Shown: piece by piece, positions 11,034 to 58,936 of the stretch
Layout: each line of letters starts with the position of its first letter
Numbering within the stretch: position 1 is the first letter of the stretch
Source: a bacterium
GTDB taxonomy: Bacteria > DRYD01
Assembly: GCA_039630415.1 (NCBI GenBank)
Contig: JBCNVB010000004.1
Coordinates: 1-58,936, forward strand
DNA: 58,936 bases
Direction: 5' to 3'
Program-made: the position numbers and the translations under genes
The notes under the pieces: generated by a model
Databases searched by the model: none
Seen by the model: the letters and a program-made list of their open reading frames with translations, nothing else
What the model was told of the DNA's origin: nothing

Positions 11034-12005
<972 letters not shown>

Positions 12006-13820
12006 CTATATTCCAGCTATACACACTATTCTTTCTTGGTCGAGATTTATTGCATCTATAACTGACTTAAATACTTCTTCTCTAGAAAAAGCTCTTCCAT
12101 TCCATTTGAGTATTCTTTTGTTTATAAGTATTCCCGTTTCTTTTCTTATCAGATTTGCTAACTGACCAGAGTAATTGGATTCTATTGATATGAGCATTTT
12201 AGCTTTTTTAAGAATAGGTAGTATTTCTTTAGCTGGAAATGGTTTAAGAAGTATTATTTGTAAGAAGTTGGTTTTATAGTATTTGTTTATCTCTTGTAAT
12301 GAATCTAGTACTGGTCCTTTAACAGAACCCCAGCCTACTATAGTGTACTCTGCGTCTTCTGGACCATAAAGTTTGTATTTTAGGTTATCTGGTAATTCTT
12401 CTAATATTTTGTTGATTTTTCTCATTCTTTTATCGAACATTTGAGTTCTGTTGTTAGATTCTTCACATATGTGCCCTAGTTCATCGTGTTCATCACCGGT
12501 ATTCCAGAAAGCTCCTTGCCCTAAAACTATTCTTGGAGATATTCCGTCTTCCACAAACTTAAATCTTTTGTATTTACCCTCTTTCTGTATGATTTGTTCT
12601 AATTCTTGATCTGATAGTAGTTTACCCCTATCTATTTTGATTTTGGATATATCGAATTTAGGTACTGTTTGTATGCTGTTAGCTATTGATTTGTCTGATA
12701 GAAATACGACGGGTAGTTGGTATTTTTCTGCTAGGTTAAAGGATTCTGCAGCCAAATAAAAGCTTTCTTCTATATCACCTGGGCTTATTACAATTCTTGG
12801 GAATTCTGAGTGTCCTGCATGCATACTAAATTCAAGGTCTCCTTGTTCATGTCTTGTTGGTAGCCCGGTTGAAGGTCCTCCTCGTTGGTAGTTAAATATC
12901 ACAACGGGTACTTCGTTAATACCTGCCCAACCTTGAGCTTCTGCCATTAAGCTAAATCCAGGACCTGAAGTAGAGGTAGCACTTCTAACGCCTGTTAGTG
13001 CCGCTCCGATTGCCATACATACTGCTGCTATCTCATCTTCGGTTTGCACAACCAAAACTCCGTATTCAGGATGTGCTTCTAGATATTCACTTTCATCACT
13101 TGCAGGAGTTATTGGATAGTATGTTTGAAATCTACAACCTCCTGCTATTTTACCTATGGCTGTTGCTGTTGTTCCTGAAGTAAGAACTAGTTCTTGTTTG
13201 TTGTCTATTGGTTTTAGCTCATAAATGGATTTCTTATCGTACTCATTATTTTTTATGTATTCATATGCTAGTTGAGCTGCAAAGAGATTTATATCCAATA
13301 ATTTGGCTCTTCGTCCTACAAAGATTGTTTCTAAAGTTCTCTTTAGATACTCTAAATCAAGATTAAGTATTGCTAATGAAGCAGCAACAGTTATAACGTT
13401 TCTCATTATTTGTAGTTTAGAAAAATCTTTTTCTCTTTGATACTTAATAGCAGCTTCTTTTATTATTTGATTAAACGGTACGGGAACTAGGAGAAATTTG
13501 TTGTTATCTATTTCGAAATTTATTTCCTTGTCGTAAATGATAACTCCATTCGGGACCACGTTATCTTTATGTAGTAGAAGTGTTTCTTTTTCAAAGGTTG
13601 CTAAGATATCTATGTTATCTGAGTGTGAACGTATAGGTGTATCTGATATGCATACTGGGTAGTAGCTATGAGCACCTTTTATATTTGAATGATATTCTCT
13701 TTTCCCGTATACATATAATCCTATTGAGCTACAGGTTCTTGCGAATGTGATTGCTGAGGAATCTACTCCACTACCTTGTGGACCACCTATTAACCAATTC
13801 AGATTATTTATTTTCTTCAT
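12006..13820 (-). CDS. korA: 2-oxoacid:ferredoxin oxidoreductase alpha subunit (fused gamma-alpha)
   Basis: GGPQGSGV, YYPITPAS, EDEIAA, TSGPGFSLM, QRGGPSTGLPT. Confidence 0.93.
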   Translation of the reverse strand: MKKINNLNWLIGGPQGSGVDSSAITFARTCSSIGLYVYGKREYHSNIKGAHSYYPVCISDTPIRSHSDNIDILATFEKETLLLHKDNVVPNGVIIYDKEINFEIDNNKFLLVPVPFNQIIKEAAIKYQREKDFSKLQIMRNVITVAASLAILNLDLEYLKRTLETIFVGRRAKLLDINLFAAQLAYEYIKNNEYDKKSIYELKPIDNKQELVLTSGTTATAIGKIAGGCRFQTYYPITPASDESEYLEAHPEYGVLVVQTEDEIAAVCMAIGAALTGVRSATSTSGPGFSLMAEAQGWAGINEVPVVIFNYQRGGPSTGLPTRHEQGDLEFSMHAGHSEFPRIVISPGDIEESFYLAAESFNLAEKYQLPVVFLSDKSIANSIQTVPKFDISKIKIDRGKLLSDQELEQIIQKEGKYKRFKFVEDGISPRIVLGQGAFWNTGDEHDELGHICEESNNRTQMFDKRMRKINKILEELPDNLKYKLYGPEDAEYTIVGWGSVKGPVLDSLQEINKYYKTNFLQIILLKPFPAKEILPILKKAKMLISIESNYSGQLANLIRKETGILINKRILKWNGRAFSREEVFKSVIDAINLDQERIVCIAGI

Positions 13821-16269: not shown

Positions 16270-16405
16270 AAATATCTGAGCACCTCCGGGCTTAGAGTTG
16301 GTCAACATTATTATTTTTTATATAATTTCTTTGGATTACCTTTCTAAAATTAACTCAAATTAGAGGAGTTGCATAGAAAAATACTTAAATACGAACTATA
16401 GACTT

Positions 16406-17155
16406 ATGATACTCCGAACAGGTTTCTTTTGTTCCACATCGGATAATACCCTAAACACGAACAGAAAATTAAGGCTGGAAAGCTTAAATTATGATAATGT
16501 CCTTAAAACTTTTACCAAAAATTTAATAGATCTAAAACTATTGCTAGAATACTCTCATAAAATTGGATTTGATGTATTTAGAATAGGTAGTAATTTCATT
16601 CCATAACTCACCCAATCAAAAAGTAGTAGAACAGTCTATTAGGGAGTTGGAGTATCATACTTTCATTCTTGACACTTTGGAAACAGATTTAAATTCCATA
16701 ATAATAATCCATGTTGGTGGAGTATATGAAAATAAGCAAAAGGCTATTGAAAGATTTATAAGTACGATTGAAAAATATCCAGGTATAAAGAAAAGATTAA
16801 CAATTGAAAATGATGATAAGTTATATTCGGTTAGGGATGTTTTGGAAATATCCAAGCAAATTAAAATTCCAGTAGTTTTTGATTACTATCATCATTTATT
16901 AAACTTTTCAGAATTTGACTTGTATGAGCTGATTAATACATGGAAGGGTAGAATTCCTAAGTTCCATATATCCAGCCAAGGAGAAAAAAATACCAACATT
17001 CGCAATATCTGGATAAACAAGATTTTGTACAATTCATAGAATTTTTATCTCCTTTATCAAGTAGTGATATAGTTATAGACATAATGCCGGAAGTTAAGAT
17101 GAAAGAAAAATCCTCTATAATGGTATTGAATTGGATCAGGGAATGTAAGATATAA
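16406..17155 (+). pseudogene. uvsE: UV damage endonuclease UvsE pseudogene
   Basis: Fragments carry FRIGSNFIP, NSPNQKVVEQSIRELEYH, IHVGGVY, IENDD, VFDYYHH, PKFHISSQ, DIMPEVKMKE. Internal deletion with stop at about 16604 and a frameshift at the A-run 16984-16990. Confidence 0.85.
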
Positions 17156-23713: not shown

Positions 23714-24760
23714 ATGTTCAATCCGCTAAAAAGCAACAGAGAAAAAGCTAGATTTTTCTTGATGTTGAATGTGGCACTTAGGGCAGGGTTACCTTTGTAT
23801 AGAACTCTTAACATAATGAAAGACAGTTTACCGAATTATTGGAAAAACGTAATCCAAGTATTATCGGAAAATATAAGACGAGGATACTCTCTGTATCAAT
23901 CGATAGCTCCGTTTAAGGAAATTTTTGAACCGGTTACTTTAAAATTAATCGCGGTAGCTGAGAATACAGGAAAACTTGATAATATTTGTATCTATTTATT
24001 TGAATATTATCAAACGAAGGATAGGGTATTAACAAAAATAGTTTCCGCAGTGACTTATCCAATATTTATCGTTATTTTTTCGTTGATAATAAGCTATATG
24101 ATTCTAGTTTTTGTTTTTCCCGTAATTGTTAATATGTATGCTGAATTCGCAGCTAATTTACCTTTGGTTACTTTGGTTTTGAAAAAGCTTGTCGATACTC
24201 TTAGTTTGAAGAATATCTTAGTATTTGTATCTATCTTTGTTGTTGTTTTTTTTCTTATGTACTTATTAATAGGTAGAGAAAGAATATTTTACATAATTGA
24301 GGACATATTGCTTTTACTACCGATTATTTCAAAAGTGTATAGTAAATTTATAGTCAACAATTTTCTATATGCTTTTGTTTTATGTATAAAGAGTGGATTA
24401 AGTATGTCAGAGGCTATAAAACATTCTCTTAGTGTATTACCAGCCAATGTTCAAAGGAGACATTTTTACGATGTATACTCTAGAATTTCTGAAGGTCAAT
24501 CTCTATCGAGTATTCTCAAAAATAAACCCTATTTTAATAAAGTTATAATCAACTTTATAAGTAGTTACGAAGAAACAGGAAACATTGATATAGTTGATAA
24601 GCTCATTAATTATTTGACGTTTGATATCAACATGTTTTTGGATAGAGTTATAGTTTTAATAGAACCCTTATTGATTTCTTTTATATCGATATTCGTGTTT
24701 TTTATAGCAGTTGCTGTTCTTATACCTATGATGAGTATATCGTTTCAGTTAGTACAATAA
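23714..24760 (+). CDS. Type II secretion system F / PilC family protein (divergent paralogue)
   Basis: AGLPL, AENTGKL, SAVTYP, EETG, LIEP; two T2SSF domains. Confidence 0.88.
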   Translation: MFNPLKSNREKARFFLMLNVALRAGLPLYRTLNIMKDSLPNYWKNVIQVLSENIRRGYSLYQSIAPFKEIFEPVTLKLIAVAENTGKLDNICIYLFEYYQTKDRVLTKIVSAVTYPIFIVIFSLIISYMILVFVFPVIVNMYAEFAANLPLVTLVLKKLVDTLSLKNILVFVSIFVVVFFLMYLLIGRERIFYIIEDILLLLPIISKVYSKFIVNNFLYAFVLCIKSGLSMSEAIKHSLSVLPANVQRRHFYDVYSRISEGQSLSSILKNKPYFNKVIINFISSYEETGNIDIVDKLINYLTFDINMFLDRVIVLIEPLLISFISIFVFFIAVAVLIPMMSISFQLVQ

Positions 24761-34934: not shown

Positions 34935-36782
34935 GTGTTAAAAATGGTTAATCTAATAGCGGTAATGGTGGTTAGCCTAATAATGTTTGCTATTTGTTTG
35001 TTTGCAATCGGACAAAATAGAGTTAATTGTATGTTGATAGTTTTTAGTGATGCTACTGGTAGTTATGCTGGAAGTCCAATAGCTAAATTTATTTCTGGTA
35101 AGTTAAGTTCGGTTAGTCCTTTTTATTGTACTTTTGAGTCTGCCTATACCTATGATAACTTACCTTTAGCATTAGATAAGGCAAAATCGAAAGGTATGAA
35201 TGTGTTAGTTGGGGGTGTTATTACTGAAAGTAATGTAACGTATTCATATGTGCATCTTCCTGCGCCTGTTCCTGGGGGTGTAAGGGTTAGGAGTGCAACT
35301 GCTAGTATATCTTTTCAAGTTGATATGAGGAGTGTAAGTGATGGTGCTATTATTTTCAATAATAGTTACAGTGCTTCTGAAACAGTGAGTGATGTTGGTG
35401 CATGGGCTTGGACAAACTGGGGATATGTTGATATAGATTCATATACTTTCCTAAATAGTCCTATGGGTAAGGCTCTTTCTAAGGCGGCTGATAAATTTAT
35501 TAAAGACATAGAGCAAAATAAGAATACTATACTCAGTAAAATACCTTCATCGTATACTACCCAAGTTCCTTCTACGACTCAGGTTCCATCAATGCAGGTT
35601 CCATCAATGCAGGTTCCATCAACGCAAGTTCCATCAACTCAGGTTCCATCAGCCCAGAGTACTAATCCTATGCAGTTTGCTCAGGAAAACATTGTACTTG
35701 GTCAGTATGAGTTTGTTAAAGTATATGAAAATCATATGGTTAATTTACCTAAGGGAACTACATTTATAAATGGACTGGAGAACATTTCAAAAAGACATAT
35801 TCTAACGACCGATTTTGTACAGAAAATAGGTAGAAATGTCCCTGTATTTAAGTACAACTATGACTGGTTCTCCACTGTAACCCAACTTAAAACACCTAAT
35901 CTTAAAATACCTGTATGTATTGATTTTATGTGTGCTTTTTTAGAACAATATGGTAGAATAATTATGAGTAATATTGGTATATCTTATGGTAGAGTTAATA
36001 AAAGTACTTTTACTTTTGATGGAATTTATTTGATTTTCCAGGTTCCGTTGAACTATGATTTAGAAGAACAGGTACCTATTAATGTAGATGTGTTTTTAGT
36101 TAGTCAGGGGGATTTAAATTATAATTGGTATTACCATGCTATACATGCAAAGAAATCTAATTTTATGCCGATAGCGAAAGGGCAAGCAACTGTTAATAGA
36201 TATCTGGTTGCTAATAAAGATGTTCACTCTAGGATATTTATTACGGATAATAAATTAGTTGTTCAGATTGAGGATAAAATTCCTATAGACATTGATTTGC
36301 CTCCTGGAGTTATCAAGGTGAAGGATGGAGTTGTTTTAGTTGATGGTATTAGTAATGCTATATCAGGATTAGCTGTGTATAGGTTGAAGGTTTTACAAGA
36401 AAATACTTATACAAGCCAAGATACAAATAAAGTAGACGATATAGAATCTCGTTTATTATCGATGGGAGCAAGTGTTTCAAAAACGCAAGTAGCCTATACT
36501 GTCTCTTTTTATACTCAAATTTTGTTCTCCAGTGTAAGTTCGAGTAATGTGGTTAAAAATGATAACTTCGAAGACTGTATGGATTTAATAGATAAGCTTA
36601 TAATAGCTAGTGGTTCTTCGGATGTAAAGATTAGAATAAACTACAAGAATTCTTCTATCTATTCACGAATTAAAGCAGTTATAAATGATTATCTTTCTTC
36701 AGTTTCCTCTGGAAACTATACCATAAGATTTTTACCAGCCGAGAATGATTCAAAGACAATAACTTTTAGAATAAGTAGATGA
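34935..36782 (+). CDS. Secreted multidomain hypothetical protein with QVPS(T/M) linker
   Basis: Signal peptide, N-terminal domain loosely CsgG/TolB-N-like, low-complexity linker. Confidence 0.6.
   Translation: MLKMVNLIAVMVVSLIMFAICLFAIGQNRVNCMLIVFSDATGSYAGSPIAKFISGKLSSVSPFYCTFESAYTYDNLPLALDKAKSKGMNVLVGGVITESNVTYSYVHLPAPVPGGVRVRSATASISFQVDMRSVSDGAIIFNNSYSASETVSDVGAWAWTNWGYVDIDSYTFLNSPMGKALSKAADKFIKDIEQNKNTILSKIPSSYTTQVPSTTQVPSMQVPSMQVPSTQVPSTQVPSAQSTNPMQFAQENIVLGQYEFVKVYENHMVNLPKGTTFINGLENISKRHILTTDFVQKIGRNVPVFKYNYDWFSTVTQLKTPNLKIPVCIDFMCAFLEQYGRIIMSNIGISYGRVNKSTFTFDGIYLIFQVPLNYDLEEQVPINVDVFLVSQGDLNYNWYYHAIHAKKSNFMPIAKGQATVNRYLVANKDVHSRIFITDNKLVVQIEDKIPIDIDLPPGVIKVKDGVVLVDGISNAISGLAVYRLKVLQENTYTSQDTNKVDDIESRLLSMGASVSKTQVAYTVSFYTQILFSSVSSSNVVKNDNFEDCMDLIDKLIIASGSSDVKIRINYKNSSIYSRIKAVINDYLSSVSSGNYTIRFLPAENDSKTITFRISR
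35562..35654 (+). repeat. 15-bp intragenic tandem repeat (5 copies plus one 18-bp variant)
   Basis: CA(G/A)GTTCCATCANNN units encoding QVPSM/QVPST/QVPSA. Confidence 0.92.
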
Positions 36783-42915: not shown

Positions 42916-44355
42916 TTATTTTTTTACTCTGAAGACTTCTCTGGGGTTTACTGCTATTAAATATGCATTCATTTGTTTTAGAATATCGAGCACTACTCCT
43001 ACTATTATTAGCATTGAGCTTCCACTTATGTAAAGTCCTACTAAACCACCTAGTGATAGTTCTTGTATACCTGTTATTTTTGAAACTACAAAATTTACGA
43101 AATACATTATGTAAGGTGGTAGAATAGTTATCATGGATAGTGCTAATCCTCCGATGAAGGCTAATCTATATAGTGTATTTTCCAGGAAGTTTTTAGTTGA
43201 TTGACCAGGTTTGATTCCTCTTATTACTGCTCCTGACTTGTTAAGATAGTCTGTTAAGTCATCAACGTTAATTACTATGAATGTATAAAAGTATGAGAAT
43301 AGTATAATCAGTGATGCATAAACTATTGAGTGCCATATATTCCATCCTAGAGTATTTAGGAAGGTTTTTAGTATTTCTGGATTAAGCTCTGTAGGTATTA
43401 CTAAATTTGGTGGTACTATGGTTTGATACAGGAATTTTAAAACAGGGTTAGTTGAAAAAGTCTCTTGGTTAACTCCGAAAGATTGAAGGATTGTTATGGG
43501 GAAGTATAGTAGAGCTACTGCGAATATTATAGGCAGTACTCCAGCTGATATAAGAGGTAGAGGTAAGAAAGTGCTTTTTTGCTGAACTAGTTTGTTACCA
43601 GCTATTATTCTCTGTGTTAACATTATTGGTATTTTCCTTATTGATAGGGACAAGAAGGATACTACTGCTATAAAGAGTAGGAAGAAAAATATCTGAACTG
43701 CTGCTATAATTATAATATTTATGGGGCTTTGACCGATATTGAATGTTTCTAGAATGTAGGATGGTAATCTAAATAGGATTGAGATAAATATTATTACTGA
43801 GCTACCATTACCTATTCCTTTTTCGTTTATTTGATCTGCTAGCCACATTATGAATACGCTGCCTGCTATAAGGGATACTACTACTGTTAGTAGGCCTATG
43901 AAGGTATTGTTTGCAAATACTGCGGGATTAGCTTTATTAATCGCTGATACTGCAAAAAAAGATTGCAAAGTTGCTATTGCGATTGCGAGCCATTTAGTGT
44001 AAAAGTTTATTTTTTTTCTTCCTTCTTCTCCGTAATCTTTTTGTAAGCTTTTGAGTTGAGGTATACTTGCTATTAGTAGTTGCATTATGATTGCAGCATC
44101 TATGTAGGGTATTATTCCTAATGATATTATTGAGAAGTTATATAGTGCTCCACCTGTAAAAATACCGAAAAATGTGAATATTGTACCTTGATTTGTTATA
44201 AATTGTCGCCAGACTTCTAAGTTAACTCCTGGGGCTACTATGTTAGTTAGAATTACGAAAGTTGCTGTAGCATATATTAGAAATCTTATTCTATTTATTA
44301 ATTCTCTGTATTGAACGCTTTCGTATATTTTTTGCAGCTTAGGTTGAGTACTCAT
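42916..44355 (-). CDS. secY: Preprotein translocase subunit SecY
   Basis: SIISLGIIPYI.A.IIMQLL, G.EGRKK, WLADQINEKGIGNGSS, RKIP, AGVLPIIFA, GIKPG..T. Confidence 0.93.
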   Translation of the reverse strand: MSTQPKLQKIYESVQYRELINRIRFLIYATATFVILTNIVAPGVNLEVWRQFITNQGTIFTFFGIFTGGALYNFSIISLGIIPYIDAAIIMQLLIASIPQLKSLQKDYGEEGRKKINFYTKWLAIAIATLQSFFAVSAINKANPAVFANNTFIGLLTVVVSLIAGSVFIMWLADQINEKGIGNGSSVIIFISILFRLPSYILETFNIGQSPINIIIIAAVQIFFFLLFIAVVSFLSLSIRKIPIMLTQRIIAGNKLVQQKSTFLPLPLISAGVLPIIFAVALLYFPITILQSFGVNQETFSTNPVLKFLYQTIVPPNLVIPTELNPEILKTFLNTLGWNIWHSIVYASLIILFSYFYTFIVINVDDLTDYLNKSGAVIRGIKPGQSTKNFLENTLYRLAFIGGLALSMITILPPYIMYFVNFVVSKITGIQELSLGGLVGLYISGSSMLIIVGVVLDILKQMNAYLIAVNPREVFRVKK

Positions 44356-47251: not shown

Positions 47252-50200
47252 GTGGGTACTTTTATTACAAATCAAAAACAAGACGGTGAAGAAATAACCC
47301 TAGAAAAAAGATTAAGATCTCTTATACCTCTTTCTTCAGAAATTAAGATTCTTGTTGGATTTTTCTACTTCTCAGCTATACCTGAAATTTATAAACCTTT
47401 GAAAGAAATTAGTAATGAACTTAAAGAAGGGCAAATCAAAATACTTGTAGGACTTGATATTGACAAAGGAATACACGGTATATATGAAGTATCAAAGAAG
47501 TACGATAGTATTGATCAAACTCGAATAAAGCAGAGTCTATTTGATTCTCTTAAAACAATTTTCCGTCATAGAGATTTTGATAAACAAGATGTATATGAAC
47601 GAATTGAATTATTTCTAAGGTTGCTAGTAGAAAGAAAAATAGTCCTTAAAAAGACTCCAAAACCGAATCATGCCAAGCTGTATCTATTTAAAATAAGGGA
47701 GCCAGATTCTAATCTCATTCCATGTTTATTTATCACTGGTAGTAGTAATTTGACAAGAGCTGGTTTAGAATCTCAAGAGGAATTTAATGTAGAGATCAAA
47801 GATTATGGATTTAAAGAAGCTGAAGAATATTTTGATAATCTTTGGAATCAGGCGGTTGAATTCGATGAACAGGATATTACAAAAATAGTTGACATAGTTA
47901 ACAATCAGACATTTTTCAGAAAAATATCACCTTTTGAAGCATATGCATATGTTTTAAAAAGCTATGTAGATTCTTTATCAGGAATAGAGTTAAATGAGGA
48001 TATAACTCATCTTTTGGAAAGAAAAGGTTACAAGATATACAATTATCAGATAGATGCTGTAAGGCAAGCTGTTTTATGTTGTCAAATGCATAATGGGGTT
48101 TTAATAGCTGATGTTGTTGGTCTTGGGAAAAGTATCATAGCTTGTCTCGTAGCAAAAGTTCTAGCAAAGAAGGGCATAGTTATTTGTCCTCCTTATTTGA
48201 TTGGTGATGAAAACAAAACTTCAGGTTGGAGAAAGTATATAGACGATTTTGAGCTTTGGGGATGGGATGTCAGAAGTTTAGGTAAGCTTAAGGAAACTCT
48301 AGAATACGTAAGAAGTAGACCTGATATTCAAATTGTAATAGTTGATGAAGCTCATAGATTCAGGAATGAAAATACTGAAAGTTATCATCTTTTGCGTGAG
48401 ATTTGTAGAGGAAAAATTGTGATCTTGCTATCTGCTACCCCCTTTAATAACAAACCATCTGATATTTTTTCTCTTATAAAGCTATTTACTATACCGAAAA
48501 AATCTTCAATTGTTTTCGATGAAAATTTGAAACAAAAATTTGATGAGTATGAAAATTTATTCAAGGATTTGGCATATATAAAAAACTACTATAATAGCAG
48601 TAGCAAGGAAAATTCTGAGCGTGCTAGGAAAAAGTATCAAAGAATTTTTAGCGATAATAAAGTTGACATAAAAAAGGTTACACGAAAATCCGAAGAGTTA
48701 GCTAGAAAAATAAGAAATATTCTTGAACCAGTAGTTATAAGAAGAAATAGGCTAGATTTGAGATATTATCAACAAGATATTGATTTACCTGAGGTTGAAG
48801 ATCCTATAAAAGAGTTTTTTGAATTATCTCCTGATCAATCAAGATTTTATGATGAAGTTATAGAATCTTTTGATGTAGGTTGGGAAAAGGGTAAGTTCAA
48901 AGGAGCAGCTTATCTACCAATACTTTATGAAAAAGGATTACTTTCTTCTTCTCTCGAAGATGAAGAAATTACTAAGCAATTCAAAGAAGATGATAATTTC
49001 CTTTTTCTCTATCAGAAAAACCTGTATAACTTAATGAGAAGGTTATTGGTTAAAAGATTTGAAAGTAGTTTCAACGCCTTTTATACAAGTATCCAGAGAT
49101 TCATTAAATTCCATGAAATTGCTATAGATTTCGTTAAAAAGACAAACAGATATATTTTGGATAAAAAACTCCTAGAACAAGTTAGTTCGTTAGAATATGA
49201 TGAGATTGAGGAAAAATTGATAGAGTATCAAAAAGAACTAGAAAAACTTAATAATGGCTCTTCCTCATATCATAAGGTATACGATTTAAATAAAAATGAG
49301 TTTGTAAAGAAGAAGGAATTCATTGATGATCTTGAAAATGATCTACAGCTTTTTAGAAACCTTAAGGAAAAAATGGAAAAGCTTAATCTTATGTCTAATG
49401 ATCCCAAGATAGAAAAGTTGAAAATGAAAATAAAAGAGTTTATCGATCATAAATACAAGATTGTTGTTTTTACCGAGTATATTGATACAGCTGAGTACGT
49501 GTATAACAGTCTTCTTAACTCCGACTTTGGTAAATACACTATAAAAGGTTATGGTAATCTGAGTGAAAACGAAATGAGAATGATATACAAAAACTTTGAT
49601 GCGCAATATCCTAATCAACAGGATGATTTCCATATTCTCGTTGCTACCGATAGACTATCTGAGGGTGTCAATTTAAATAGAGCGGGTGTAGTTATAAATT
49701 ATGATATTCCATGGAATCCTGTAAGAGTTATACAAAGGGTAGGGAGAATAAATAGAATTGGAAAGAAAGTTTATTCAAAGATATACATTGTCAATTTCTT
49801 TCCCACGGAAAAGGGAGCTGATATAGTTAGATCACATGAAATAGCGTCTACCAAAATGTTTATGATACATAAAATTTTGGGGGAAGATTCTAAGATACTA
49901 GACCCTGATGAAGAACCCAAACCATCTCTACTTTACGAGAAAATGAATACTTATCCAGAAGAAAAAGAAGAAAGTTTTTTAACCAAAGTAAGAAAAGAGT
50001 ACGATAGGATAAAAACGCAGTATCCTGAGATAATTAATAAAATATCAGATTTTCCTCCAAGAGTGAAAGTTTCTAAACTTGGTGAAAAAAATGAGCTGGT
50101 AGTTTTTGTAAAAAGGAATAAAGATATTTTTATTCGCTATATAGATTATGACCGTGCTAGTCCTTCAACAGTTTCCTTTGAAGATGTTTTCGATAAAATA

Positions 50201-50656
50201 AAATGTGACTATGATACTCCTTCCCTTAAAATGAGTAAAGATTTTTGGAAATATTATCAGATGACTTTAAATAAGTATCATTTAATCTTAAGTCATAATG
50301 CTCGTAGTAGTGCTTTAAATGTATTGCAAACTATTCTTATCAAATGGGACCAATTTCCTTTTTCAAAAGATTTTCAACAGTCACAGAAGTATAGGGAGTT
50401 TATAAAAAGGATTATTGAAGACATTAGAGAGTATGGAACCATCTCGGAATATGTTTTAAACAAAATAATTTCTTGGGGACGTATTATTAGCAACCAGCCA
50501 GAAAAATTAAAAGATCTATTACCAGAGATATCTGAAACTTTGGGGTTTGATTTCCTAGAAAGAACTATGAAGTTACAAAAGGAGTATGAAGAAGAGGTTA
50601 TAGTAGCAATAGAAAATTTATCCACTCCTGCTTATGAATCAGAGAGAAATAGTTGA
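47252..50656 (+). CDS. PLD-family nuclease fused to SNF2-type helicase (restriction-like subunit)
   Basis: N-terminal HAKLY...TGSSNLT (PLD HxK). Walker A ADVVGLGKS, DEAH, SATP, SEGVNL, YDIPWNP, QRVGRINR. Confidence 0.9.
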   Translation: MGTFITNQKQDGEEITLEKRLRSLIPLSSEIKILVGFFYFSAIPEIYKPLKEISNELKEGQIKILVGLDIDKGIHGIYEVSKKYDSIDQTRIKQSLFDSLKTIFRHRDFDKQDVYERIELFLRLLVERKIVLKKTPKPNHAKLYLFKIREPDSNLIPCLFITGSSNLTRAGLESQEEFNVEIKDYGFKEAEEYFDNLWNQAVEFDEQDITKIVDIVNNQTFFRKISPFEAYAYVLKSYVDSLSGIELNEDITHLLERKGYKIYNYQIDAVRQAVLCCQMHNGVLIADVVGLGKSIIACLVAKVLAKKGIVICPPYLIGDENKTSGWRKYIDDFELWGWDVRSLGKLKETLEYVRSRPDIQIVIVDEAHRFRNENTESYHLLREICRGKIVILLSATPFNNKPSDIFSLIKLFTIPKKSSIVFDENLKQKFDEYENLFKDLAYIKNYYNSSSKENSERARKKYQRIFSDNKVDIKKVTRKSEELARKIRNILEPVVIRRNRLDLRYYQQDIDLPEVEDPIKEFFELSPDQSRFYDEVIESFDVGWEKGKFKGAAYLPILYEKGLLSSSLEDEEITKQFKEDDNFLFLYQKNLYNLMRRLLVKRFESSFNAFYTSIQRFIKFHEIAIDFVKKTNRYILDKKLLEQVSSLEYDEIEEKLIEYQKELEKLNNGSSSYHKVYDLNKNEFVKKKEFIDDLENDLQLFRNLKEKMEKLNLMSNDPKIEKLKMKIKEFIDHKYKIVVFTEYIDTAEYVYNSLLNSDFGKYTIKGYGNLSENEMRMIYKNFDAQYPNQQDDFHILVATDRLSEGVNLNRAGVVINYDIPWNPVRVIQRVGRINRIGKKVYSKIYIVNFFPTEKGADIVRSHEIASTKMFMIHKILGEDSKILDPDEEPKPSLLYEKMNTYPEEKEESFLTKVRKEYDRIKTQYPEIINKISDFPPRVKVSKLGEKNELVVFVKRNKDIFIRYIDYDRASPSTVSFEDVFDKIKCDYDTPSLKMSKDFWKYYQMTLNKYHLILSHNARSSALNVLQTILIKWDQFPFSKDFQQSQKYREFIKRIIEDIREYGTISEYVLNKIISWGRIISNQPEKLKDLLPEISETLGFDFLERTMKLQKEYEEEVIVAIENLSTPAYESERNS

Positions 50657-53600
50657 AATAGTTCAAAATCTTGCAAGTAACTTTTCTATTAGTAATCTCA
50701 AATCTTTTATCTCTTGCAAGAAATTTAAGGAAAAGGAAGAAATATACTATCTTGATTCTGATAAGTTTACACGACCAGAAGAAATATTGGTGGTTGGTAG
50801 GCGTAAGTTAGGTTATCAAGATATTCGCGTATTTGCAATAAAGATTCCTGATTTGAATGAGAGAACTAGTAAAAAGAGACAGTATGAGTTAGCTAAAAGA
50901 ATGCTGGTAAGATTTCAGAGTGATGCTGGACTATTTTTCTTCTACAACGACCAAAAAATGTTCAGGTTTTCTTTTATTTACTCAGTTCCATTATATTTAA
51001 GAAGGCAGTATAGCTATTACAAAAGACATACTTATTTTGTCTCTCCTGATAAACCGAATAGAACATTTTGTGAAAACATGATAAAATGTAATTTTGATAG
51101 TTTAGATGAGATAAAGGAAGCTTTTTCTGTTTATCCTCTTACGAAAGAGTTTTTCACAGAAGTTAGGAATTGGTATGCTTGGATGCTTAAACTCCATAAA
51201 CAAGGTATTATACGCTTCCCTGGTGGTAAAATTGAGGAAAATTTAATTAGGCTTATTACGAGGTTAATTTTTATATGGTTTTTAAAGGAAAAAGGATTAG
51301 TTCCTGAAAGCATTTTTGATCCTGATTTTCTTAGCACGGTTGTTAAGAATTTTGCTAAAGATAGCAATTATTACAATGTTATTTTGCAGAATTTATTTTT
51401 TGCCACTCTTAATACGGAAGTAAGTGAAAGAAGATTTGCAGAAAATGGTGATTTTCTCATAAATCGAAATCATTTTGGTGTAAAAAATCTGTATAGATAC
51501 CAGGACAAACTTCTAATTTCTACAGAGGATTTCATTGATATTTTTAAATCTGTTCCGTTTATTAATGGTGGTCTGTTTTTATGTTTGGATGATGATAATG
51601 AATATATTGATGGATTTAGCCGTAATGAAAAGAAAAGGGCTGTACTACCTGATTTCGTATTTTTCAGTGATTATAGAAATGAAGATCTATCGGATTTCTA
51701 CGGAGAAAGTAAAATACAAAAGGTTAGAGGTTTAATCAATACTTTTAAGGACTATAACTTTACTGTTGATGAATCTTCACCGATAGATGTAGAGGTTTCA
51801 CTTGATCCGGAGCTTTTAGGTAATGTTTTCGAAAATTTATTGGCTTGTTATAATCCAGAAACTAGCACTACAGCAAGAAAATCTACGGGTTCATACTACA
51901 CCCCCAAGGAAATAGTTGACTTTATGGTTGATGAATCACTTCTAGAGTACTTAAAAGATAAAACGAGGATAGAGGAGTTAAAGTTAATCAAATTGCTTTC
52001 ATATAGTGATGATGATTTAGATTTGTCACTTGAGGAAAGGAAAAGTATAGTAAAAGCGATAGATAACTTGAAAGTATTAGATCCTGCAGTTGGTTCTGGG
52101 GCTTTTCCAGTTGGTATGCTTCATAAATTAGTTCATATCCTCAATAGAGTTGATCCAGATAACAGCCTATGGCTTGATATACAACTAGATAGAGCTAGAG
52201 AAGATATAAAAGTAGTCTCCGAATTAGGTGAAGAAATTGATATAAATGAATCTATAAAAGAAATAGAAAAGGATTTTGATGAGCTTTTGAATTATCCCGA
52301 TTATTCAAGGAAATTGTATATTATTCAAAACTGTCTATATGGTGTTGATATACAACCCATAGCGATTCAGATATGCAAGTTGAGATTCTTTTTAAGTTTA
52401 TTAGTAGATCAGAAGGTTGATTTTACGAAGCCTAATTTTGGTATAAGGCCTTTGCCTCATTTAGAGACCAAATTTGTTGCTGCAAATACTCTTATAAAAC
52501 TGGAAAGCGAGATTAATTTACAGCTTTTCACACAAGAAATAAAAAAGCTTGAAAAAGAGCTAAAACTGATATATAAGAAGCATTTTTCTGTTAAAACAAG
52601 AACCCAGAAAAAGAGGTTACAGGAAAAAGCCCAAAAAATACGTGAGAAAATGAGACATCTTTTAGAAAAGAAAAAGATAGGAAGTGAAGAAATCAAAAGG
52701 ATTGTAGAATTTGACATTTTTTCACAACATCAAGAAGCAGCTGATTGGTTCGATCACTTTTGGATGTTTGGTATCGACAGAAAATTCGATATAGTAATAG
52801 GTAATCCCCCAATATGTAAGGCAAGAAAAAATTAAAGATGTTAAGAATATTCTAAAACAACAAGGATACGAAGTTTTTGATTCCAAAGCGGATTTATATG
52901 TCTACTTTTTTGAAAAAGGAATAAACCTTCTAGAAGATGGTGGTATCTTGGCTTTTATATCTTCTAACAAATGGATGAGAGCTTCTTATGGAAAAAATCT
53001 AAGAAAAAAGTTGAAAGAAAAAAGTATACTAAAAATCATAGATTTCGGTGGATATCCTGTTTTTGAACAATCAGTAGATACCTGTATAGTTATTTTGAAA
53101 AACAAAAAATATCAAGAGAATCATGAATTTTATTTTGTTAATGTCCCATCAAACTTAAAAGATCACAAACACGCTATTAAATACATCTACGAAAATCAAA
53201 ATAGTATGAAGCAAAAAGATATGTTAACCGATATACTAGTTCTAGAAGATAGAAAAATTTTAGCAATAAAAGAAAAAATCGAAAAAATTGGTAAACCACT
53301 CAAAGATTGGAATGTAAGAATATATAGAGGTGTGTTGACAGGTTTTAACGAGGCTTTTATAATAGACACCGAGACTAGAGAAAAAATTTTGGAAAACTGC
53401 TTGACAAAAGAGGAAAGAGAAAGAACTGAAAAGATAATAAAACCGGTCTTGAGAGGAAGAGATATACAAAGATATTATTATGAATGGAAAGGGTTGTGGT
53501 TGATTGGAACATTTCCTTCTCTGAAACTAGATATAGAAAATTATCCATCTATAAAAAAATATTTTCTGGATAATTTTGATATTAGATTGCTGGAACAGTC

Positions 53601-54129
53601 TGGTAAAAAATATCCAATGTTAGGATTTAATGCAAGAAAAAAGACAAGTAATAAATGGTTTGAGACACAGGACAATATAGCTTACTATCAGGAATTTGAA
53701 AAAGAAAAAATAATTTGGCAAGAAATGACAAGGAGACCTTCATTTAGCTATGATTCGCAAAAGTTTTATACTCTTCAAACCTGTTATATACTAACAGGTG
53801 ATAAGATTTTATTTCTTCTTGCTGTTCTTAATTCCATAGTGTCATTCTTCTATTTAACAAAAATTTGTTATTCTTTATCTGATGTTTCTAATCGCTGGAT
53901 AAAACAATATGTGGAAAGAATACCAATACCTGAAATTAGAGAGGAAAATAAAATTTTAAGTACTGACATACAAGAGCTAGCTTCAAAAATAACCAAACTT
54001 AAGCAAAGCAATCATATGTATAATACTCAAGACTTAGAAAATCAGATAGATGATCTAGTATTCAAGCTATACAATTTGACAGATGAAGAAGGAAAAATAG
54101 TGAGGAAAACAATACTATATGATCAATAG
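50634..54129 (+). pseudogene. Eco57I/TaqI-like N6-adenine methyltransferase with C-terminal TRD; +1 frameshift in NPPY
   Basis: GSYYTP and LDPAVGSGAF. Removing one A at 52811-52812 restores GNPPYVRQE..ADLYVYF and joins the two ORFs into about 1164 aa. Confidence 0.88.
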
Positions 54130-54190: not shown

Positions 54191-54718
54191 ATGGATTTTG
54201 AAGAACAACTAGTAAAACAGATAAACTTTAATCAATTTATGAGTTTTTTACCAAACCATAGGATTAAGTTCAAAAGAAAAAAGCCTGGCCAAAATAAAGC
54301 AACTTCATGATTATCTGCATGATCTTATATCTTTAAAAAAACAAGTAATGGGTTTATCTGAAAGATGGGAAGTTTTTAGTCATTTGAAAGATCAGAAGAA
54401 TACTGGTTATGTAGACTTACTATCAGATAAGCCCAAACCATTAAAATTTTACTACCTTCCGATACTTGAAAGTTTAATAGAGTTAGGAGGTAGAGCAGAG
54501 GTTGAAGAGATACTTTCCAGAGTGTTTGTTAAGGTAAAAAAAGATCTATCAGAAAAGGATCTAGGTAAAGTAGGTAAAGGAGAAATGAGATGGAGAAATT
54601 TTGCTAGATGGGCAAGAAAAAAATGGTACAAGAGGGTTTACTTTCTTCAAACTCTCCCAGAGGAATATGGGAAATAACTGAAGAAGGTAAAAAATACTAT
54701 TATGAGCATAAAAAATAA
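54191..54718 (+). pseudogene. Mrr N-terminal winged-helix domain protein, frameshifted
   Basis: YYLPILESLIELGG, RWRNFARWAR. Adding one A to the run 54617-54623 gives MVQEGLL..NSPRGIWEITEEG. The 5' region is also disrupted. Confidence 0.75.
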
Positions 54719-54762: not shown

Positions 54763-56288
54763 TTACTTAATTTGTTTTACTTGGAATTGTTTTAGAGATT
54801 TAGAAGAAGAGTCAATTACTATTCCAATTGCGAAGATTTTCTCATAATGTAAGTATTTGTTAAAATACTGCCTAGCTAATATTTGTTCAATTGGTTGCCC
54901 TTTATCAACTTTGAACTCAAATATGTAAGCAGTGTTTTGATGTAAAACGGTTAAATCGATATTACCTGTAGAAGAGATATCTTCAGCTATAACGTTAAGT
55001 CCTGTTGCTACTAGAAAAACATAAAATACACTACAGTAAAAAGCTTCATATTGAGAAGTTCTTGTATACCACTGAAAAGGAATTTGTGCAAATAAATTGT
55101 TGAGAAAACCGGGCAGAAGATCTAAATCACTATTATCAAAAATAGCCTCAAGTTGCATGGAAATCTTCTCTTTGGTGGATGTGGAACCTGCAAAAAAGGA
55201 AGATAAAGTATCATTAAGAGAGATTTTGACTTCTAGATTGGGATATGATAGAACATATCTGGTTCGATTGTTTTTTACAAACTGATCTTTAATCGTCAGG
55301 TAACCTGTTTGGAAAAGCAGAGCTTCAGGTTCAATAAATTCAATATCAAAAGATTCTAGTAGTTTATCGGAAGAAAAGGTTTTTTCTAACTGTGGGATAT
55401 AAAACTGTTTTTGTTGGAGGACTTTTATTAGAAAAGAGGGAGTACCAGTTTCAAACCAATAGGGTAAGAATTGACGTTCTTGAAGATAGAGAAGTATATC
55501 AAATGGATTGTAAACGAGCTCTCCATTCCAATAGTAACCATTATACCACTCTTGGATTTTTTGCATTTCCTCCTGAGAGGTTATCAGATGACCAAAAGTG
55601 GATGATAATTCTTGTTGAGTATATCCACAAATAGTTGCGTAGTCTTTCGAAAGTGATATGTCTCTGAGTTGGTTAAGTCCACTAAAGAGAGAGACTTTGG
55701 CAAATTTGGAGATGCCTGTGATAAAGACAAATTTGAGATATTTGTCGAGAGATTTGATAGTTTGGTAAAGTCCTTTGAGAATTTCTCTGATTTCTTTGGC
55801 AATATCTGGAGTTTCAATGTTATCAAGTATAGGTTTGTCATACTCATCTATAAGTAAAACTACTTGTTTATTGAACTTCAGGTAAATTTTTTCAACGAGT
55901 TCTTTAACCGTCTAAAAAAGAGCTCTTCGTGAAGTTCTATGTTATACATACGGGAGTATTGATTGAGATATGAGAATATGTAAGAGAGTAATTCATATGG
56001 TTTTTTGATGATACCTTCGTCAAAAGAAAATCTGATAACGGGGAAGGTTTGACTCCAGTCCCAGTTATGTTCTAAAAATAACCCTTTGAAAAGTTCTCTT
56101 TTCCCTTCAAAAGCGTATTTAATGGTGTCAAGAAATAAAGATTTGCCAAACCTACGAGGGCGAGATAAAAAATAATAACTACCCTGATCTACTAGTTTTT
56201 TAATAAAATGAGTTTTATCAACGTAGTAATAATTATCAGATCTGATTTTTTCAAAAGAGCTAACACCAATCGGAAGCTTTTTATTCAC
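54763..56288 (-). pseudogene. AAA-ATPase-like/PD-(D/E)XK nuclease, copy 1, single -1 frameshift at about 55906
   Basis: KKLPIG, YYYVDKT, RPRRFGKS, IDEYDKP, YWFETGTP, E....G.ID....FEFK. The frame is open from about 55905 to 54763. Confidence 0.88.
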
Positions 56289-56394
56289 ACTAATAGAATA
56301 TGTTATGGGGGTAAAAAATCCTAGCTGGAGGTTTGACGCAAAATTTGTAGAAATATATATCACGAACCCTTGATATGAAAAAAACTACACACGG
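56289..56394 (+). promoter_or_regulatory. Putative CRISPR leader
   Basis: AT-rich ~105 bp directly preceding repeat 1, at the opposite end from the most degenerate repeat. Confidence 0.5.
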
Positions 56395-56553
56395 GTTTAA
56401 ATGTGCCAAAGAGGGATTTAAACTCCGGAATTGATGAGTATATCGATTAGCTGCGAATTCGTTTAAATGTGCCAGAGAGGAATTTAAACCTTAAATTGAT
56501 AAGCTAATCTATTATACATTTTGACTTTAAACGTGTCGAAGAAGAATTTAAAT
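56395..56553 (+). CRISPR. Orphan CRISPR mini-array: three 29-bp repeats, spacers of 37 and 35 bp
   Basis: R1 GTTTAAATGTGCCAAAGAGGGATTTAAAC (56395-56423). R2 (56461-56489) is 27/29 identical to R1. R3 (56525-56553) is 22/29. GTTT...ATTTAAAC ends resemble type I-B/III repeats. Confidence 0.8.
56511..56539 (-). promoter_or_regulatory. Sigma70-like promoter inside the array (TCGACA-N17-TATAAT)
   Basis: -35 at 56539-56534 within repeat 3, perfect -10 at 56516-56511 within spacer 2, 17-bp spacing. Confidence 0.45.
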
Positions 56554-56583
56554 TTCATGTCTATAGGTAGTTTAAATCGTAGA

Positions 56584-58107
56584 TTATTTGATTTTTTGGA
56601 TTCGGAAGTGTTTAACGGATTTGGAAGAGGAATCAACTACTATTCCAATCGCAAATATTTTCTCATAATTTAGGTATTTATTGAAGTACTGTTTAGTTAG
56701 TATCTGTTCAATAGGTTGTCCTTTATCTACTTTGAGTTCAAAAACGTAGGCAATATTTTGATGAACAACAGTTAAATCAATACTTCCAGTAGATGAGATA
56801 TCTTCAGCTGTTACATTAAGCCCAGTAGCAACCATAAAAACATAAAAAACTGTGCAATAAAAAGCTTCATATTGACTTGTATGAATATACCATTGGAAGG
56901 GAATCTGCGTGAAAAGATTGTTAAGAAATTCTGGTAATTTTTCCAACTCTAAGTTATCAAAAATATCCATCAACTGAAGAGTAAATTTTTGTTCAAGAGA
57001 AGTGGAGTTGACTAATAATGATGCTATTCTGGAATTGAAAGATAACTTAACCTCAAAGTTGGGATATGAAAGTACAAAGAAAGTTCGCTGATTTTTTACA
57101 AAAGTATCTTTGATAGTTAGATAACCTGTTTGGAAAAGTAAAGCTTCTGGTTCTATCGATTCTATATCAAAAGCATTAAGTAGCTCTTCAGATGAGACTA
57201 TCCTCTCTAGTTGAGGGATGTAATATTGTTTTTGCTGTAGGATTTTAATAAGGAAAGAAGGAGTACCAGTTTCAAACCAATAGTTTCTGAAATCCTTTTT
57301 CTGAAGATAAAGTAGTACATCAAAAGGATTATAAACATTCTCCCCTAGCCAGCTATAACCGTTATACCATTGTTTTATTGACTCTAGTTGATTATTGTCT
57401 ATCAAGTGACCAAAAGTGTTTATCAATTCATTTTCAGTGTATCCACAGATAGTTGAGTACTCTCTGTCAAGGGAGATATCATTTAGTTGATTAAGTCCAC
57501 TAAAAAGAGAAACTTTAGCAAATTTTGATATACCCGTGATAAATACAAATTTGAGATACTTGTCAAGCGATTTTATAGTTTGATAAAGACCTTTGAGAAT
57601 TTCTCTAATTTCTTTGGCGCTATCTAGATTTTCAATGTTATCTAGTATGGGTTTATCATATTCGTCAACTAATAATATTACCTGTTTATTGAATTTAAGA
57701 TATACCTTTTCTACAAGTTCCTTGAATCGTCTAAAAAAGAGTTCTTCATGAAGTTCTATTTCATACATACGGGAGTATTGATTGAAGTAAGAGAAAATGT
57801 ATGAAAGTAACTCTTGAGGTTTTTTTATGATGCCTTCGTCAAAGGACAATCTAATTACAGGGAAAGTTTGGCTCCAGTTCCAATTGTCCTCCAAAAACAA
57901 CCCTTGGAAAAGTTCTTTTCTACCTTCGAAAGCACATCTGATAGTATCCAAGAATAGGGACTTACCAAATCTTCGTGGTCTGGAAAGAAAATAATACTTC
58001 CCCTGGTCTACCAGTTTTTTGATAAAATGAGTTTTATCTACATAATAGTAATTGCTGGTTCTAATTTCTTCAAAAGAGCTGATACCAATAGGAAGCTTTT
58101 TATTCAC
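56584..58107 (-). CDS. AAA-ATPase-like/PD-(D/E)XK nuclease, copy 2 (intact)
   Basis: 507 aa; RPRRFGKS, VDEYDKP, YWFETGTP, AED...GSIDL...FELK. Confidence 0.92.
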   Translation of the reverse strand: MNKKLPIGISSFEEIRTSNYYYVDKTHFIKKLVDQGKYYFLSRPRRFGKSLFLDTIRCAFEGRKELFQGLFLEDNWNWSQTFPVIRLSFDEGIIKKPQELLSYIFSYFNQYSRMYEIELHEELFFRRFKELVEKVYLKFNKQVILLVDEYDKPILDNIENLDSAKEIREILKGLYQTIKSLDKYLKFVFITGISKFAKVSLFSGLNQLNDISLDREYSTICGYTENELINTFGHLIDNNQLESIKQWYNGYSWLGENVYNPFDVLLYLQKKDFRNYWFETGTPSFLIKILQQKQYYIPQLERIVSSEELLNAFDIESIEPEALLFQTGYLTIKDTFVKNQRTFFVLSYPNFEVKLSFNSRIASLLVNSTSLEQKFTLQLMDIFDNLELEKLPEFLNNLFTQIPFQWYIHTSQYEAFYCTVFYVFMVATGLNVTAEDISSTGSIDLTVVHQNIAYVFELKVDKGQPIEQILTKQYFNKYLNYEKIFAIGIVVDSSSKSVKHFRIQKIK

Positions 58108-58155
58108 AAAGATAAATTAGGTTTACGTTATTTTGATTCCTTCAAAAAAATCATA

Positions 58156-58936
58156 TTACTTAATTTTTTGAATTTGGAAATGCTTTATGGACTTAGAAGA
58201 AGAATCAACCACTATTCCAATTGCAAAAATTTTCTCATAGTGTAGGTATTTGTTAAAATACTGCTTGGTTAAGATTTGCTCAATAGGTTGTCCTTTATCA
58301 ACTTTGAATTCGAAAATATATACGGTATTTTGATAAAGAACTGTTAAATCGATACTTCCGGTAGAAGAAGTATCCTCTGCAATGACATTAAGTCCGGTAG
58401 CTACCAAGAAAACATAAAATACTGTACAGTAAAAAGCTTCATATTGACTTGTATGAGTGTACCATTGAAAAGGAATCTTTGCAAAGAGATTGTTCAAAAA
58501 TTCTGGTAGTTTTTCTAACTCTGAATTATCAAAAATGTTTATCAGCTCAAAAGTAAGCCTTTGTTTAAGTGAAGTGGAGTTAACAAATAATGATGCTATC
58601 CTAGAGTTGAGAGAAAGTTTAACTTCAAAGTTGGGGTAAGAAAGAATAAAAAAAGTTCGTTGATTTTTTGTAAAAGTATCTTTGATAGTTAGATAGCCGG
58701 TTTGAAACATCAGAGCTTCTGGTTCAATAAATTCGATATCAAAAGCACTTAGTAAATCCTCAGAGGATATTATTCTTTCGAGGGTAGGTATATAAAACTG
58801 TTTTTGTTGAAGTACTTTAATTAAGAAAGAAGGGGTACCTGTTTCGAACCAGTAGTTTCTAAAGTCTCTTTTTTGAAGATAGAGTAATACATCAAAGGGA
58901 TTATATACGTTCTCACCAAGCCAATTATACCCATTG
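58156..58936 (-). CDS. AAA-ATPase-like/PD-(D/E)XK nuclease, copy 3 (5' end outside window)
   Basis: Frame open to the window edge; C-terminal half closely paralogous to copies 1 and 2. Confidence 0.88.
   Translation of the reverse strand, partial: NGYNWLGENVYNPFDVLLYLQKRDFRNYWFETGTPSFLIKVLQQKQFYIPTLERIISSEDLLSAFDIEFIEPEALMFQTGYLTIKDTFTKNQRTFFILSYPNFEVKLSLNSRIASLFVNSTSLKQRLTFELINIFDNSELEKLPEFLNNLFAKIPFQWYTHTSQYEAFYCTVFYVFLVATGLNVIAEDTSSTGSIDLTVLYQNTVYIFEFKVDKGQPIEQILTKQYFNKYLHYEKIFAIGIVVDSSSKSIKHFQIQKIK

Follow-up and report, generated by a model that had tools for sequence, protein, structure and literature searches.

CRISPR arrays that stand apart from CRISPR-associated (cas) genes are reported to be common and to be shorter than those linked to cas genes (PMC9071438). 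The regulatory mini-arrays collected by Shmakov et al. (2023) are described as lying in or beside cas loci, where they occur in 17-19% of type I-B loci, and as having usually two repeats, with 12 longer cases; they show partial matches of at least 10 nucleotides (nt) at the seed end of the spacer, accompanied by a protospacer-adjacent motif, in nearby promoters, and their second repeat is degraded (PMC10120712). Proteins of the DUF1703 family, for their part, are described as having an unusual Walker A motif and a C-terminal PD-(D/E)XK domain (Knizewski et al. 2007; PMC1913061), and both expansions of the family and recombination among its paralogues are on record (PMC6387759). Here we describe a locus in which the two meet: a three-repeat array lying between two of three tandem DUF1703 genes, at the right end of a 58,936-nt contig stretch (JBCNVB010000004.1; the whole stretch is referred to below as the window). 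We consider it rather probable that the array, type I-B-like, small, and either orphaned or in decay, is co-located with a DUF1703 cluster in a defense island, and no support was found for a functional partnership between the array and the DUF1703 genes.

The gap between the first two DUF1703 genes, copy 1 and copy 2, measures 298 nt (56286-56583) and contains three repeats of 29 nt, separated by two spacers. In plus-strand order, the reference repeat R1 (56395-56423) is followed by spacer S1 (56424-56460; 37 nt), repeat R2 (56461-56489; 2 mismatches to R1), spacer S2 (56490-56524; 35 nt, 20% G+C), and a degenerate distal repeat, R3 (56525-56553), which has 7 mismatches to R1 (76% identical). 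The periods are 66 and 64 nt. This arrangement has the generic form of a CRISPR array (at least three regular direct repeats of 23-47 nt with spacers of similar length), and it is not expected by chance: with up to 3 mismatches allowed, R1 has 2 matches in the window against 0.00 expected from 100 shuffles, and a degenerate pattern of the repeat has 3 matches against 0.02 expected. The repeat has no copy elsewhere in the window beyond R1-R3, and a purpose-made pair detector found no second CRISPR-like pair in the 58.9 kb.

To the left of R1 lies a CRISPR leader (56286-56394, plus strand), within which 56311-56343 resembles the leader of an array on the Calditerrivibrio nitroreducens plasmid pCALNI01. 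The local alignment scores 28, compared with 18.0 +/- 2.5 for shuffled sequences (2 of 1000 shuffles reach 28), and the reverse-complement control gave no significant likeness. The pCALNI01 array (NC_014749.1, 33042-33396) is cas-less and consists of six 29-nt repeats with a period of 64-66 nt. Its repeat is identical to R1 at 18 of 29 positions, a value reached by 2 of 20,000 shuffles of R1; the reverse complement of R1 gives 15 of 29. Searching with the pCALNI01 array located further arrays, of 8-13 repeats, on the Bacillus mycoides plasmids NZ_CP035988.1 and NZ_CP035986.1, directly 3' of cas6-cas8b-cas7-cas5-cas3 genes annotated as type I-B. The B. mycoides repeat matches R1 at 17 of 29 positions and is like it in length, period, and ends; the leaders of these two arrays show no significant likeness to that of the window. 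The repeats of the B. mycoides arrays (11807-12617 in record L024, 11820-12289 in record L025) are unusually divergent, being 72-96% identical to the reference copy within each array.

Because the repeat length, period, and ends together with the leader match those of pCALNI01, and because this class of repeat adjoins type I-B cas genes in B. mycoides, the window array is, as judged from these likenesses, a genuine type I-B-like array, its class being assigned by repeat resemblance only. The leader similarity on the left and the degenerate repeat on the right place the array on the plus strand, and it is therefore antisense to the DUF1703 genes; in this predicted orientation the order is leader-R1-S1-R2-S2-R3, converging on the 3' end of copy 2. 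A second leader-like stretch lies just downstream of copy 1, where 54673-54699 resembles the start of the leader (56297-56323) with 74% identity over 27 nt (p ~0.06), including a common 14-mer that differs at one base; this is possibly a leader remnant, or chance.

The three DUF1703 genes are arranged head-to-tail on the minus strand, with start-to-start distances of 1821 and 1572 nt and, as direct-repeat families, 69-82% DNA identity. Pfam domains PF09820 and/or PF08011 were found in every DUF1703 piece of the window. Copy 2 (56584-58107) is the only whole copy; it encodes 507 amino acids (aa) and carries both domains above the gathering score (PF09820, E 9.7e-66, 221.8 bits; PF08011, E 4.6e-12, 46.3 bits), as do the pieces of copies 1 and 3 for the parts that are present. 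Copy 1 (54763-56285), likewise encoding an ATPase with a PD-(D/E)XK nuclease, is broken by an apparent one-base frameshift near 55895-55905 into an N-terminal part (55878-56285) and a C-terminal part (54763-55887). The break falls between Walker A and Walker B, at K-E-L codons where one base has been lost relative to copy 2. The gene call for this contig in the protein collection (P0007, 374 aa) is the downstream piece of copy 1, and the copy 1 ortholog from a related metagenome-assembled genome (MAG), P0005, is unbroken. Copy 3 (58156-58936 and continuing beyond) is separated from copy 2 by a junction of 48 nt and is represented by its C-terminal 259 aa only, being truncated where the contig stops at position 58936; its Walker motifs are out of view because the gene runs off the contig. 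With motif definitions taken from the published family description (PMC1913061), Walker A (RPRRFGKS) and Walker B (DEYD) are found in copies 1 and 2 and the nuclease motif D...E.K in all three; the invariant positions of the alignment are R43-K49, D148-D151, D444, E457, and K459.

The family to which these genes belong is very large, all 8000 of the 8000 scored candidates having E <= 0.001 (that is, at least 8000 members). Thermophiles carry it in several copies (five of the best 120 matches are paralogues from Caldimicrobium thiodismutans), and the closest relatives of the window copies, at 69-80% identity, again occur several to a MAG contig. A fold model of copy 2 based on a 60-sequence alignment reached a predicted local distance difference test score (pLDDT) of 90 and a predicted TM-score (pTM) of 0.88. 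Foldseek comparison of this model with the PDB gave 17 matches at E <= 0.001 with low TM-scores (0.21-0.36), the closest solved folds being the archaeal Walker ATPases 2qen and 2fna, NLRC4, MalT, Apaf-1, ORC/Cdc6, and Avs3/4. By this fold similarity, at low TM-scores, the modeled ATPase module has the fold of a STAND/ORC-type AAA+ ATPase. Copy 2 matched 0 families of PADLOC-DB 2.0 at E <= 0.01 and no NCBIfam or PDB sequence, and neither Pfam nor fold comparison detected an RNA-binding or repeat-processing domain in DUF1703. A review table gives PF09820 for RdrA, PARIS1, and Old-tin (PMC10952713); membership of DUF1703 among the Avs/RADAR-type defense proteins is only a candidate assignment. 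In the literature searched, we found no tested function for the family.

No Cas family was detected in 46 of the 58 open reading frames (ORFs) of at least 90 aa in the window. The other 12, which the scan left out, comprise 10 lying inside longer ORFs on the opposite strand, one of 90 aa between the genes for PFOR subunits, and one within copy 3. In PADLOC and NCBIfam the sole Cas-named matches reflect weak similarity of an SNF2 protein, described below, to the Cas3g helicase domain.

The preliminary description of this DNA had identified the genes as AAA-type ATPase/PD-(D/E)XK paralogues in at least three head-to-tail copies, the gap as a leader-like stretch with three repeats and two spacers, and the surroundings as a restriction-modification-like module with no cas gene in 59 kb. 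The domain and motif matches, the direct repeats, the chance expectations of 0.00-0.02 with the pCALNI01-like leader, and the identities of the neighboring genes (frameshifted in part) agree with all of this, as does the Cas scan as far as it extends. Its statement that the copies have intact motifs applies to copy 2 only, copy 1 being frameshifted and copy 3 truncated.

Several comparisons bear on whether the array belongs with the genes that flank it. The junction between copies 2 and 3 contains no repeat and has no significant likeness to the junction between copies 1 and 2, nor do these two junctions and the stretch downstream of copy 1 show significant mutual homology. Derivation of the repeat from a native sequence surviving singly at the junction of copies 2 and 3 was considered and rejected, no similarity being found there; the same junction faintly resembles the pCALNI01 leader (6 of 300 shuffles), a likeness on which we do not rely. 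The spacers have no match of at least 10 nt in the promoter regions of 54-59 kb; the sole 10-nt match in that interval lies inside the coding region of copy 1. The literature searched contained nothing linking DUF1703, PF09820, or PF08011 to CRISPR, and the main text of a preprint survey of CRISPR-linked genes makes no mention of the family (10.1101/270033).

A tblastn search found the family in 59 plasmid records, from which 21 were hand-picked for examination (best matches plus a spread of taxa). Real arrays occur near DUF1703 in three of these records and are absent within 10 kb of it in the remaining 18 (the distance considered was 10 kb, and 20 kb for pCALNI01). The array of pCALNI01 lies about 4 kb from DUF1703, that of Hydrogenophilus pTH1 1.7 kb away and adjoining cas1, and that of a Sphaerotilus plasmid about 4 kb away and adjoining cas2-cas1-cas2; in all three other genes intervene, and the array is never adjacent to DUF1703. 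Two plasmids have tandem DUF1703 pairs, with gaps of 128 nt (L002, which is pCALNI01) and 54 nt (L017), and no array lies between the members of either pair. The plasmid neighbors of DUF1703 include Cas1, an Rpn nuclease, a UvrD helicase, and a Piwi-domain protein; BREX-2 with cas1/cas2; and toxin-antitoxin genes. These too are defense genes; clustering in defense islands is the simpler reading. Further repeat clusters flagged on the plasmids were rejected as CRISPR arrays: those of L011 and L021 are iterons of replication origins, and those of L009 and L023 are simple tandem repeats.

Some features of these plasmids are worth recording in their own right. On NZ_AP018559.1 (L003) and NZ_CP035707.1 (L014), short arrays accompanied by cas1 or cas2-cas1-cas2, and by no annotated effectors, are found at 1.7-4 kb from DUF1703, and the genes nearby are for a Piwi-domain protein, a UvrD helicase, an Rpn nuclease, or BREX-2. 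Plasmid pCALNI01 (58.7 kb) has five DUF1703 copies, two of them in tandem, and also carries two IS200/IS605 TnpA-TnpB pairs and three dynamin-family genes.

If the window array is a small orphan that happens to share a defense island with DUF1703 genes, it would be the shrunken remnant of a larger CRISPR locus. At most, its leader might drive transcription and the array serve in trans as an outpost of a type I-B system encoded at another place in the genome; its RNA would be cut by Cas6 only if the genome encodes one. The DUF1703 proteins would act alone, without the array, as ATP-driven, STAND/ORC-like oligomerizing nucleases of the kind found in defense islands, and their genes would have been amplified through tandem duplication and recombination. 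The adjacency of array and genes would then reflect co-location in a defense-gene hotspot and not a guide-effector partnership. The preliminary description had allowed for a version of this as a fallback, namely insertion of the genes into a decaying CRISPR locus, and an orphan or decaying array beside a DUF1703 cluster is close to that fallback.

A number of observations weigh against this account. No cas gene was found, and a scan of 185,579 species-representative genomes (evidently excluding the window's own) with the degenerate pattern did not find the repeat, its one solitary match being in an unrelated MAG and outside any array, so that the parent type I-B locus is assumed only. The spacers have no significant match in 50,697 phage and 72,556 plasmid records (the whole gap was searched; best E 0.07). 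The strongest promoter-like site, TCGACA-17-TATAAT (56511-56539; 11/12, a consensus match only), is on the minus strand, inside R3/S2 and directed toward copy 1; it is the best of the region and one of only 5 sites scoring at least 11/12 in the window on both strands. The two spacers show a weak mutual likeness (S1 against S2, global score 7 versus 3.2 +/- 1.5 for shuffles, 57 of 2000 of which reach 7), which hints at a duplicated repeat-spacer unit, a fit better than that of two independent acquisitions. The three array-bearing records among the 21 look more than rare beside the roughly 3% of plasmids reported to carry any CRISPR or cas locus (PMC9071438), in a sample that is small, hand-picked, and confounded by taxon. 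It is notable, finally, that pCALNI01 joins a related repeat class, five DUF1703 copies, and no annotated cas gene on one plasmid.

The composition of S1 also weighs against the account and is left unexplained by it. After its first 8 nt, S1 consists of two abutting exact pieces, of 14 and 15 nt, of a T2SSF-family (pilus/secretion platform) gene located at 23714-24760: positions 9-22 copy 24729-24742 (plus strand), and positions 23-37 are the reverse complement of 24143-24157. Among 200,000 random 37-mers from the window, 11,511 had one exact match of at least 14 nt elsewhere, and none had two non-overlapping matches lying no more than 1 kb apart. Ordinary acquisition of spacers does not account for exact fragments from two places in a single chromosomal gene being joined without a seam. 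The possibility that S1 represents the junction in an inverted T2SSF-family allele was rejected as a full explanation, as 29 of the 37 nt fit and the first 8 do not. S2 has no exact match of at least 12 nt elsewhere in the window.

The likeness between the spacers and the position of the promoter-like site lend themselves to an alternative outside CRISPR biology, in which a unit of about 65 nt was duplicated in tandem, diverged, and now functions either as promoter and 5' untranslated region for copy 1 or, in an operon of copy 3-copy 2-copy 1, as an intercistronic RNA element. It would also accord with the lack of any terminator-like site between copies 2 and 1, with the ability of the repeat termini to pair (R1 and R2 form a weak terminal hairpin of -4.3 to -4.9 kcal/mol, and R3 forms no stable one), with the failure of the array to match any Rfam CRISPR-DR family either at the gathering threshold or at E up to 10, and with the absence of a further repeat copy from every collection searched and of the R1 sequence from the literature searched. 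We nevertheless regard it as unlikely: the repeat agrees in length, period, and both ends with real CRISPR repeats, some of which adjoin type I-B cas operons; the leader has its like in front of a real array; no tandem repeat of 65 nt is reported at the array by Tandem Repeats Finder; and no such element is present at the junction of copies 2 and 3 or in other DUF1703 tandem pairs. The open minus-strand frame of the array was also compared with proteins of 36-116 aa in the protein collection, and no candidate shared three 5-residue words with it, a weak negative.

Quite unlikely, in our estimation, is a regulatory mini-array of the CreA/scaRNA type, in which an R2-S1-R1 RNA would guide a trans-encoded Cas complex to partially matching targets, either the T2SSF-family gene or the DUF1703 genes, and regulate without cleaving them. 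The twin exact matches of S1 within one gene, unparalleled among the random 37-mers, speak for such a guide, and reading the array on the minus strand puts the 15-nt piece at the 5' seed end of the spacer with the 11/12 promoter-like site just upstream. Reported mini-arrays, moreover, use partial matches of at least 10 nt, have a degraded second repeat, and occur in 17-19% of loci of the I-B type that the repeat resembles (PMC10120712). The leader and the position of the degenerate repeat, however, favor the plus strand, on which neither T2SSF site matches positions 1-8 of the spacer; type I seed logic therefore predicts no binding. The matches also fall within coding sequence instead of a promoter, the pieces come from opposite strands, an arrangement used by no known guide mechanism, and the spacers have no match of at least 10 nt to the promoters of the DUF1703 or restriction-modification genes. 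Because the array has neither the cas-locus setting of described mini-arrays nor a seed match in a promoter, we do not file it among them.

We attach a small likelihood, again, to the idea that the array is a working guide-like RNA gene without local cas genes, whose S1 directs a trans-encoded Cas complex or the flanking DUF1703 proteins to the T2SSF-family gene. If this were true, expression of a pilus or secretion system would be tied to a defense island, and the co-occurrence of the repeat class with DUF1703 clusters on the cas-less pCALNI01 would be more than coincidence. Pili and secretion systems are a common route of phage entry.

Least probable is the proposal at the center of the preliminary description, an undescribed system in which the nucleases are linked to or controlled by CRISPR-derived RNAs. 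In such a system, RNAs from the adjacent array would be loaded onto the DUF1703 ATPase-nucleases or would switch them on. The proposal could draw on the position of the array exactly between two DUF1703 copies, on pCALNI01, where this class of repeat is found with five copies of DUF1703 and without an annotated cas gene, on the short arrays without annotated effectors near DUF1703 in L003 and L014, and on the lack of a tested function for the family in the literature searched. Against it, the array runs antisense to the DUF1703 genes, of which one flanking copy carries a frameshift, the structural neighbors are STAND/ORC ATPases with no RNA-binding or repeat-processing domain detected, no spacer has a match of at least 10 nt in a promoter region of 54-59 kb, the junction of copies 2 and 3 and the tandem pairs on plasmids are array-free, 18 of the 21 plasmid records have no nearby array and other genes intervene in the remaining three, and the preprint survey of CRISPR-linked genes passes over the family in its main text (10.1101/270033).

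As it stands, the locus adds a further orphan array in a defense island beside a multi-copy gene family, which is useful for annotation and not surprising. Three aspects may merit a survey. The first is the recurrence of the very large DUF1703 family among defense genes, and its proximity to short arrays or cas1/cas2 modules in three of the 21 plasmid records; the second is the combination of a related repeat and leader on a cas-less plasmid with five DUF1703 copies; the third is the two-fragment join in S1.

The genes to the left of the DUF1703 cluster are of defense type. A protein with PLD (HKD) and SNF2 helicase domains (47252-50656, plus strand; Pfam PLDc_2, SNF2-rel_dom, and Helicase_C) matches DrmD (1.9e-37) and the 'HKD+Snf2' candidate (3.3e-35) in PADLOC. 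It is followed by a type IIG-like restriction/methyltransferase (50634-54129, plus strand), which matches the PADLOC type IIG models and is a single gene split by one extra base exactly at its NPPY motif (~52800-52815). The break at this catalytic motif could be an error of assembly, mark the gene as a pseudogene, or act as an on/off switch. The NCBIfam matches of both proteins are all far below the curated cut-offs. The pair (47252-54129) resembles DrmD/DrmMI of DISARM, and the partners DrmA, DrmB, and DrmC are not present beside it. Between this pair and copy 1 lies a gene for a small protein (54348-54677, plus strand) with a weak Mrr_N-like match (E 0.0008; 19.9 bits, below the Pfam cut-off of 29.5).

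The host is, by sequence comparison, a deep-branching bacterium of an uncultured lineage: its SecY (42916-44355) is 68-85% identical to MAG proteins only and at most 37% identical to that of any named taxon. The presence of genes for a branched-chain polyamine synthase, PFOR, phosphoketolase, and flagellar export suggests an anaerobic, thermophilic lifestyle. Positions 1-718, with which the contig begins, belong to the 3'-terminal part of a 23S rRNA gene; since a DUF1703 paralogue occupies the opposite end, the contig is bounded on both sides by repeated sequence. A gene for a UvdE UV-endonuclease (16364-17039) is found in two frames, with a break near 16590-16606, which makes three single-base frame breaks across the 59 kb (UvdE, type IIG, and DUF1703 copy 1), all in dispensable genes. 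In-frame tandem repeats occur at 35580-35651 (15 nt x 4.8 copies) and 8316-8371 (12 nt x 4.7 copies), in ORFs without a Pfam match.

Set beside described systems, the array has in common with CreA of CreTA and the mini-arrays of Shmakov et al. its very short length, a degraded distal repeat, and spacers within 20-60 nt, one of which matches parts of a host gene exactly. It differs from them in having three repeats, in lying neither in nor beside a cas locus, and in having no seed-end match in its supported orientation and no nearby promoter target. The proteins on either side share with the DUF1703 family at large both Pfam domains, Walker A RPRRFGKS, Walker B DEYD, and the D...E.K motif, and, like other members, they occur in a multi-copy genome with signs of paralogue recombination; expansions of the family include the 25 paralogues of Cardinium cCpun. 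Unlike those, the window copies are tightly tandem, belong to a thermophile-like uncultured lineage, and adjoin restriction-modification-type genes, and no signal-peptide or secretion idea is applicable to them. With Avs (STAND NTPase-nucleases) and RdrA of RADAR, they share a defense-island setting and a modeled ATPase fold that is nearest to STAND/ORC proteins, including Avs3 and Avs4; they differ in having the DUF1703 nuclease at the C-terminus, no TPR or other sensor domain, low TM-scores, and no PADLOC match.

The nearest relatives of the array itself are on plasmids. The type I-B arrays of B. mycoides have its repeat length, period, and ends, with 17/29 identity to R1, but they comprise 8-13 repeats after a cas operon, whereas the window array has three with no cas gene in 59 kb and a leader that is not significantly alike. 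The orphan array of pCALNI01 comes closest. It and the window array have in common 29-nt repeats, a 64-66-nt period, and GTTT...GGGATTTAAA-type ends; the two repeats share 18/29 identity, the leaders contain a related stretch, the last repeat of each is degenerate, no cas gene is annotated on the plasmid or was found in the window, and DUF1703 genes are nearby in both. They differ in that the window array has only three repeats, with repeat sequences only 62% identical to those of the plasmid, and in that DUF1703 genes flank it directly on both sides, the array of pCALNI01 being 4 kb from the nearest tandem pair.

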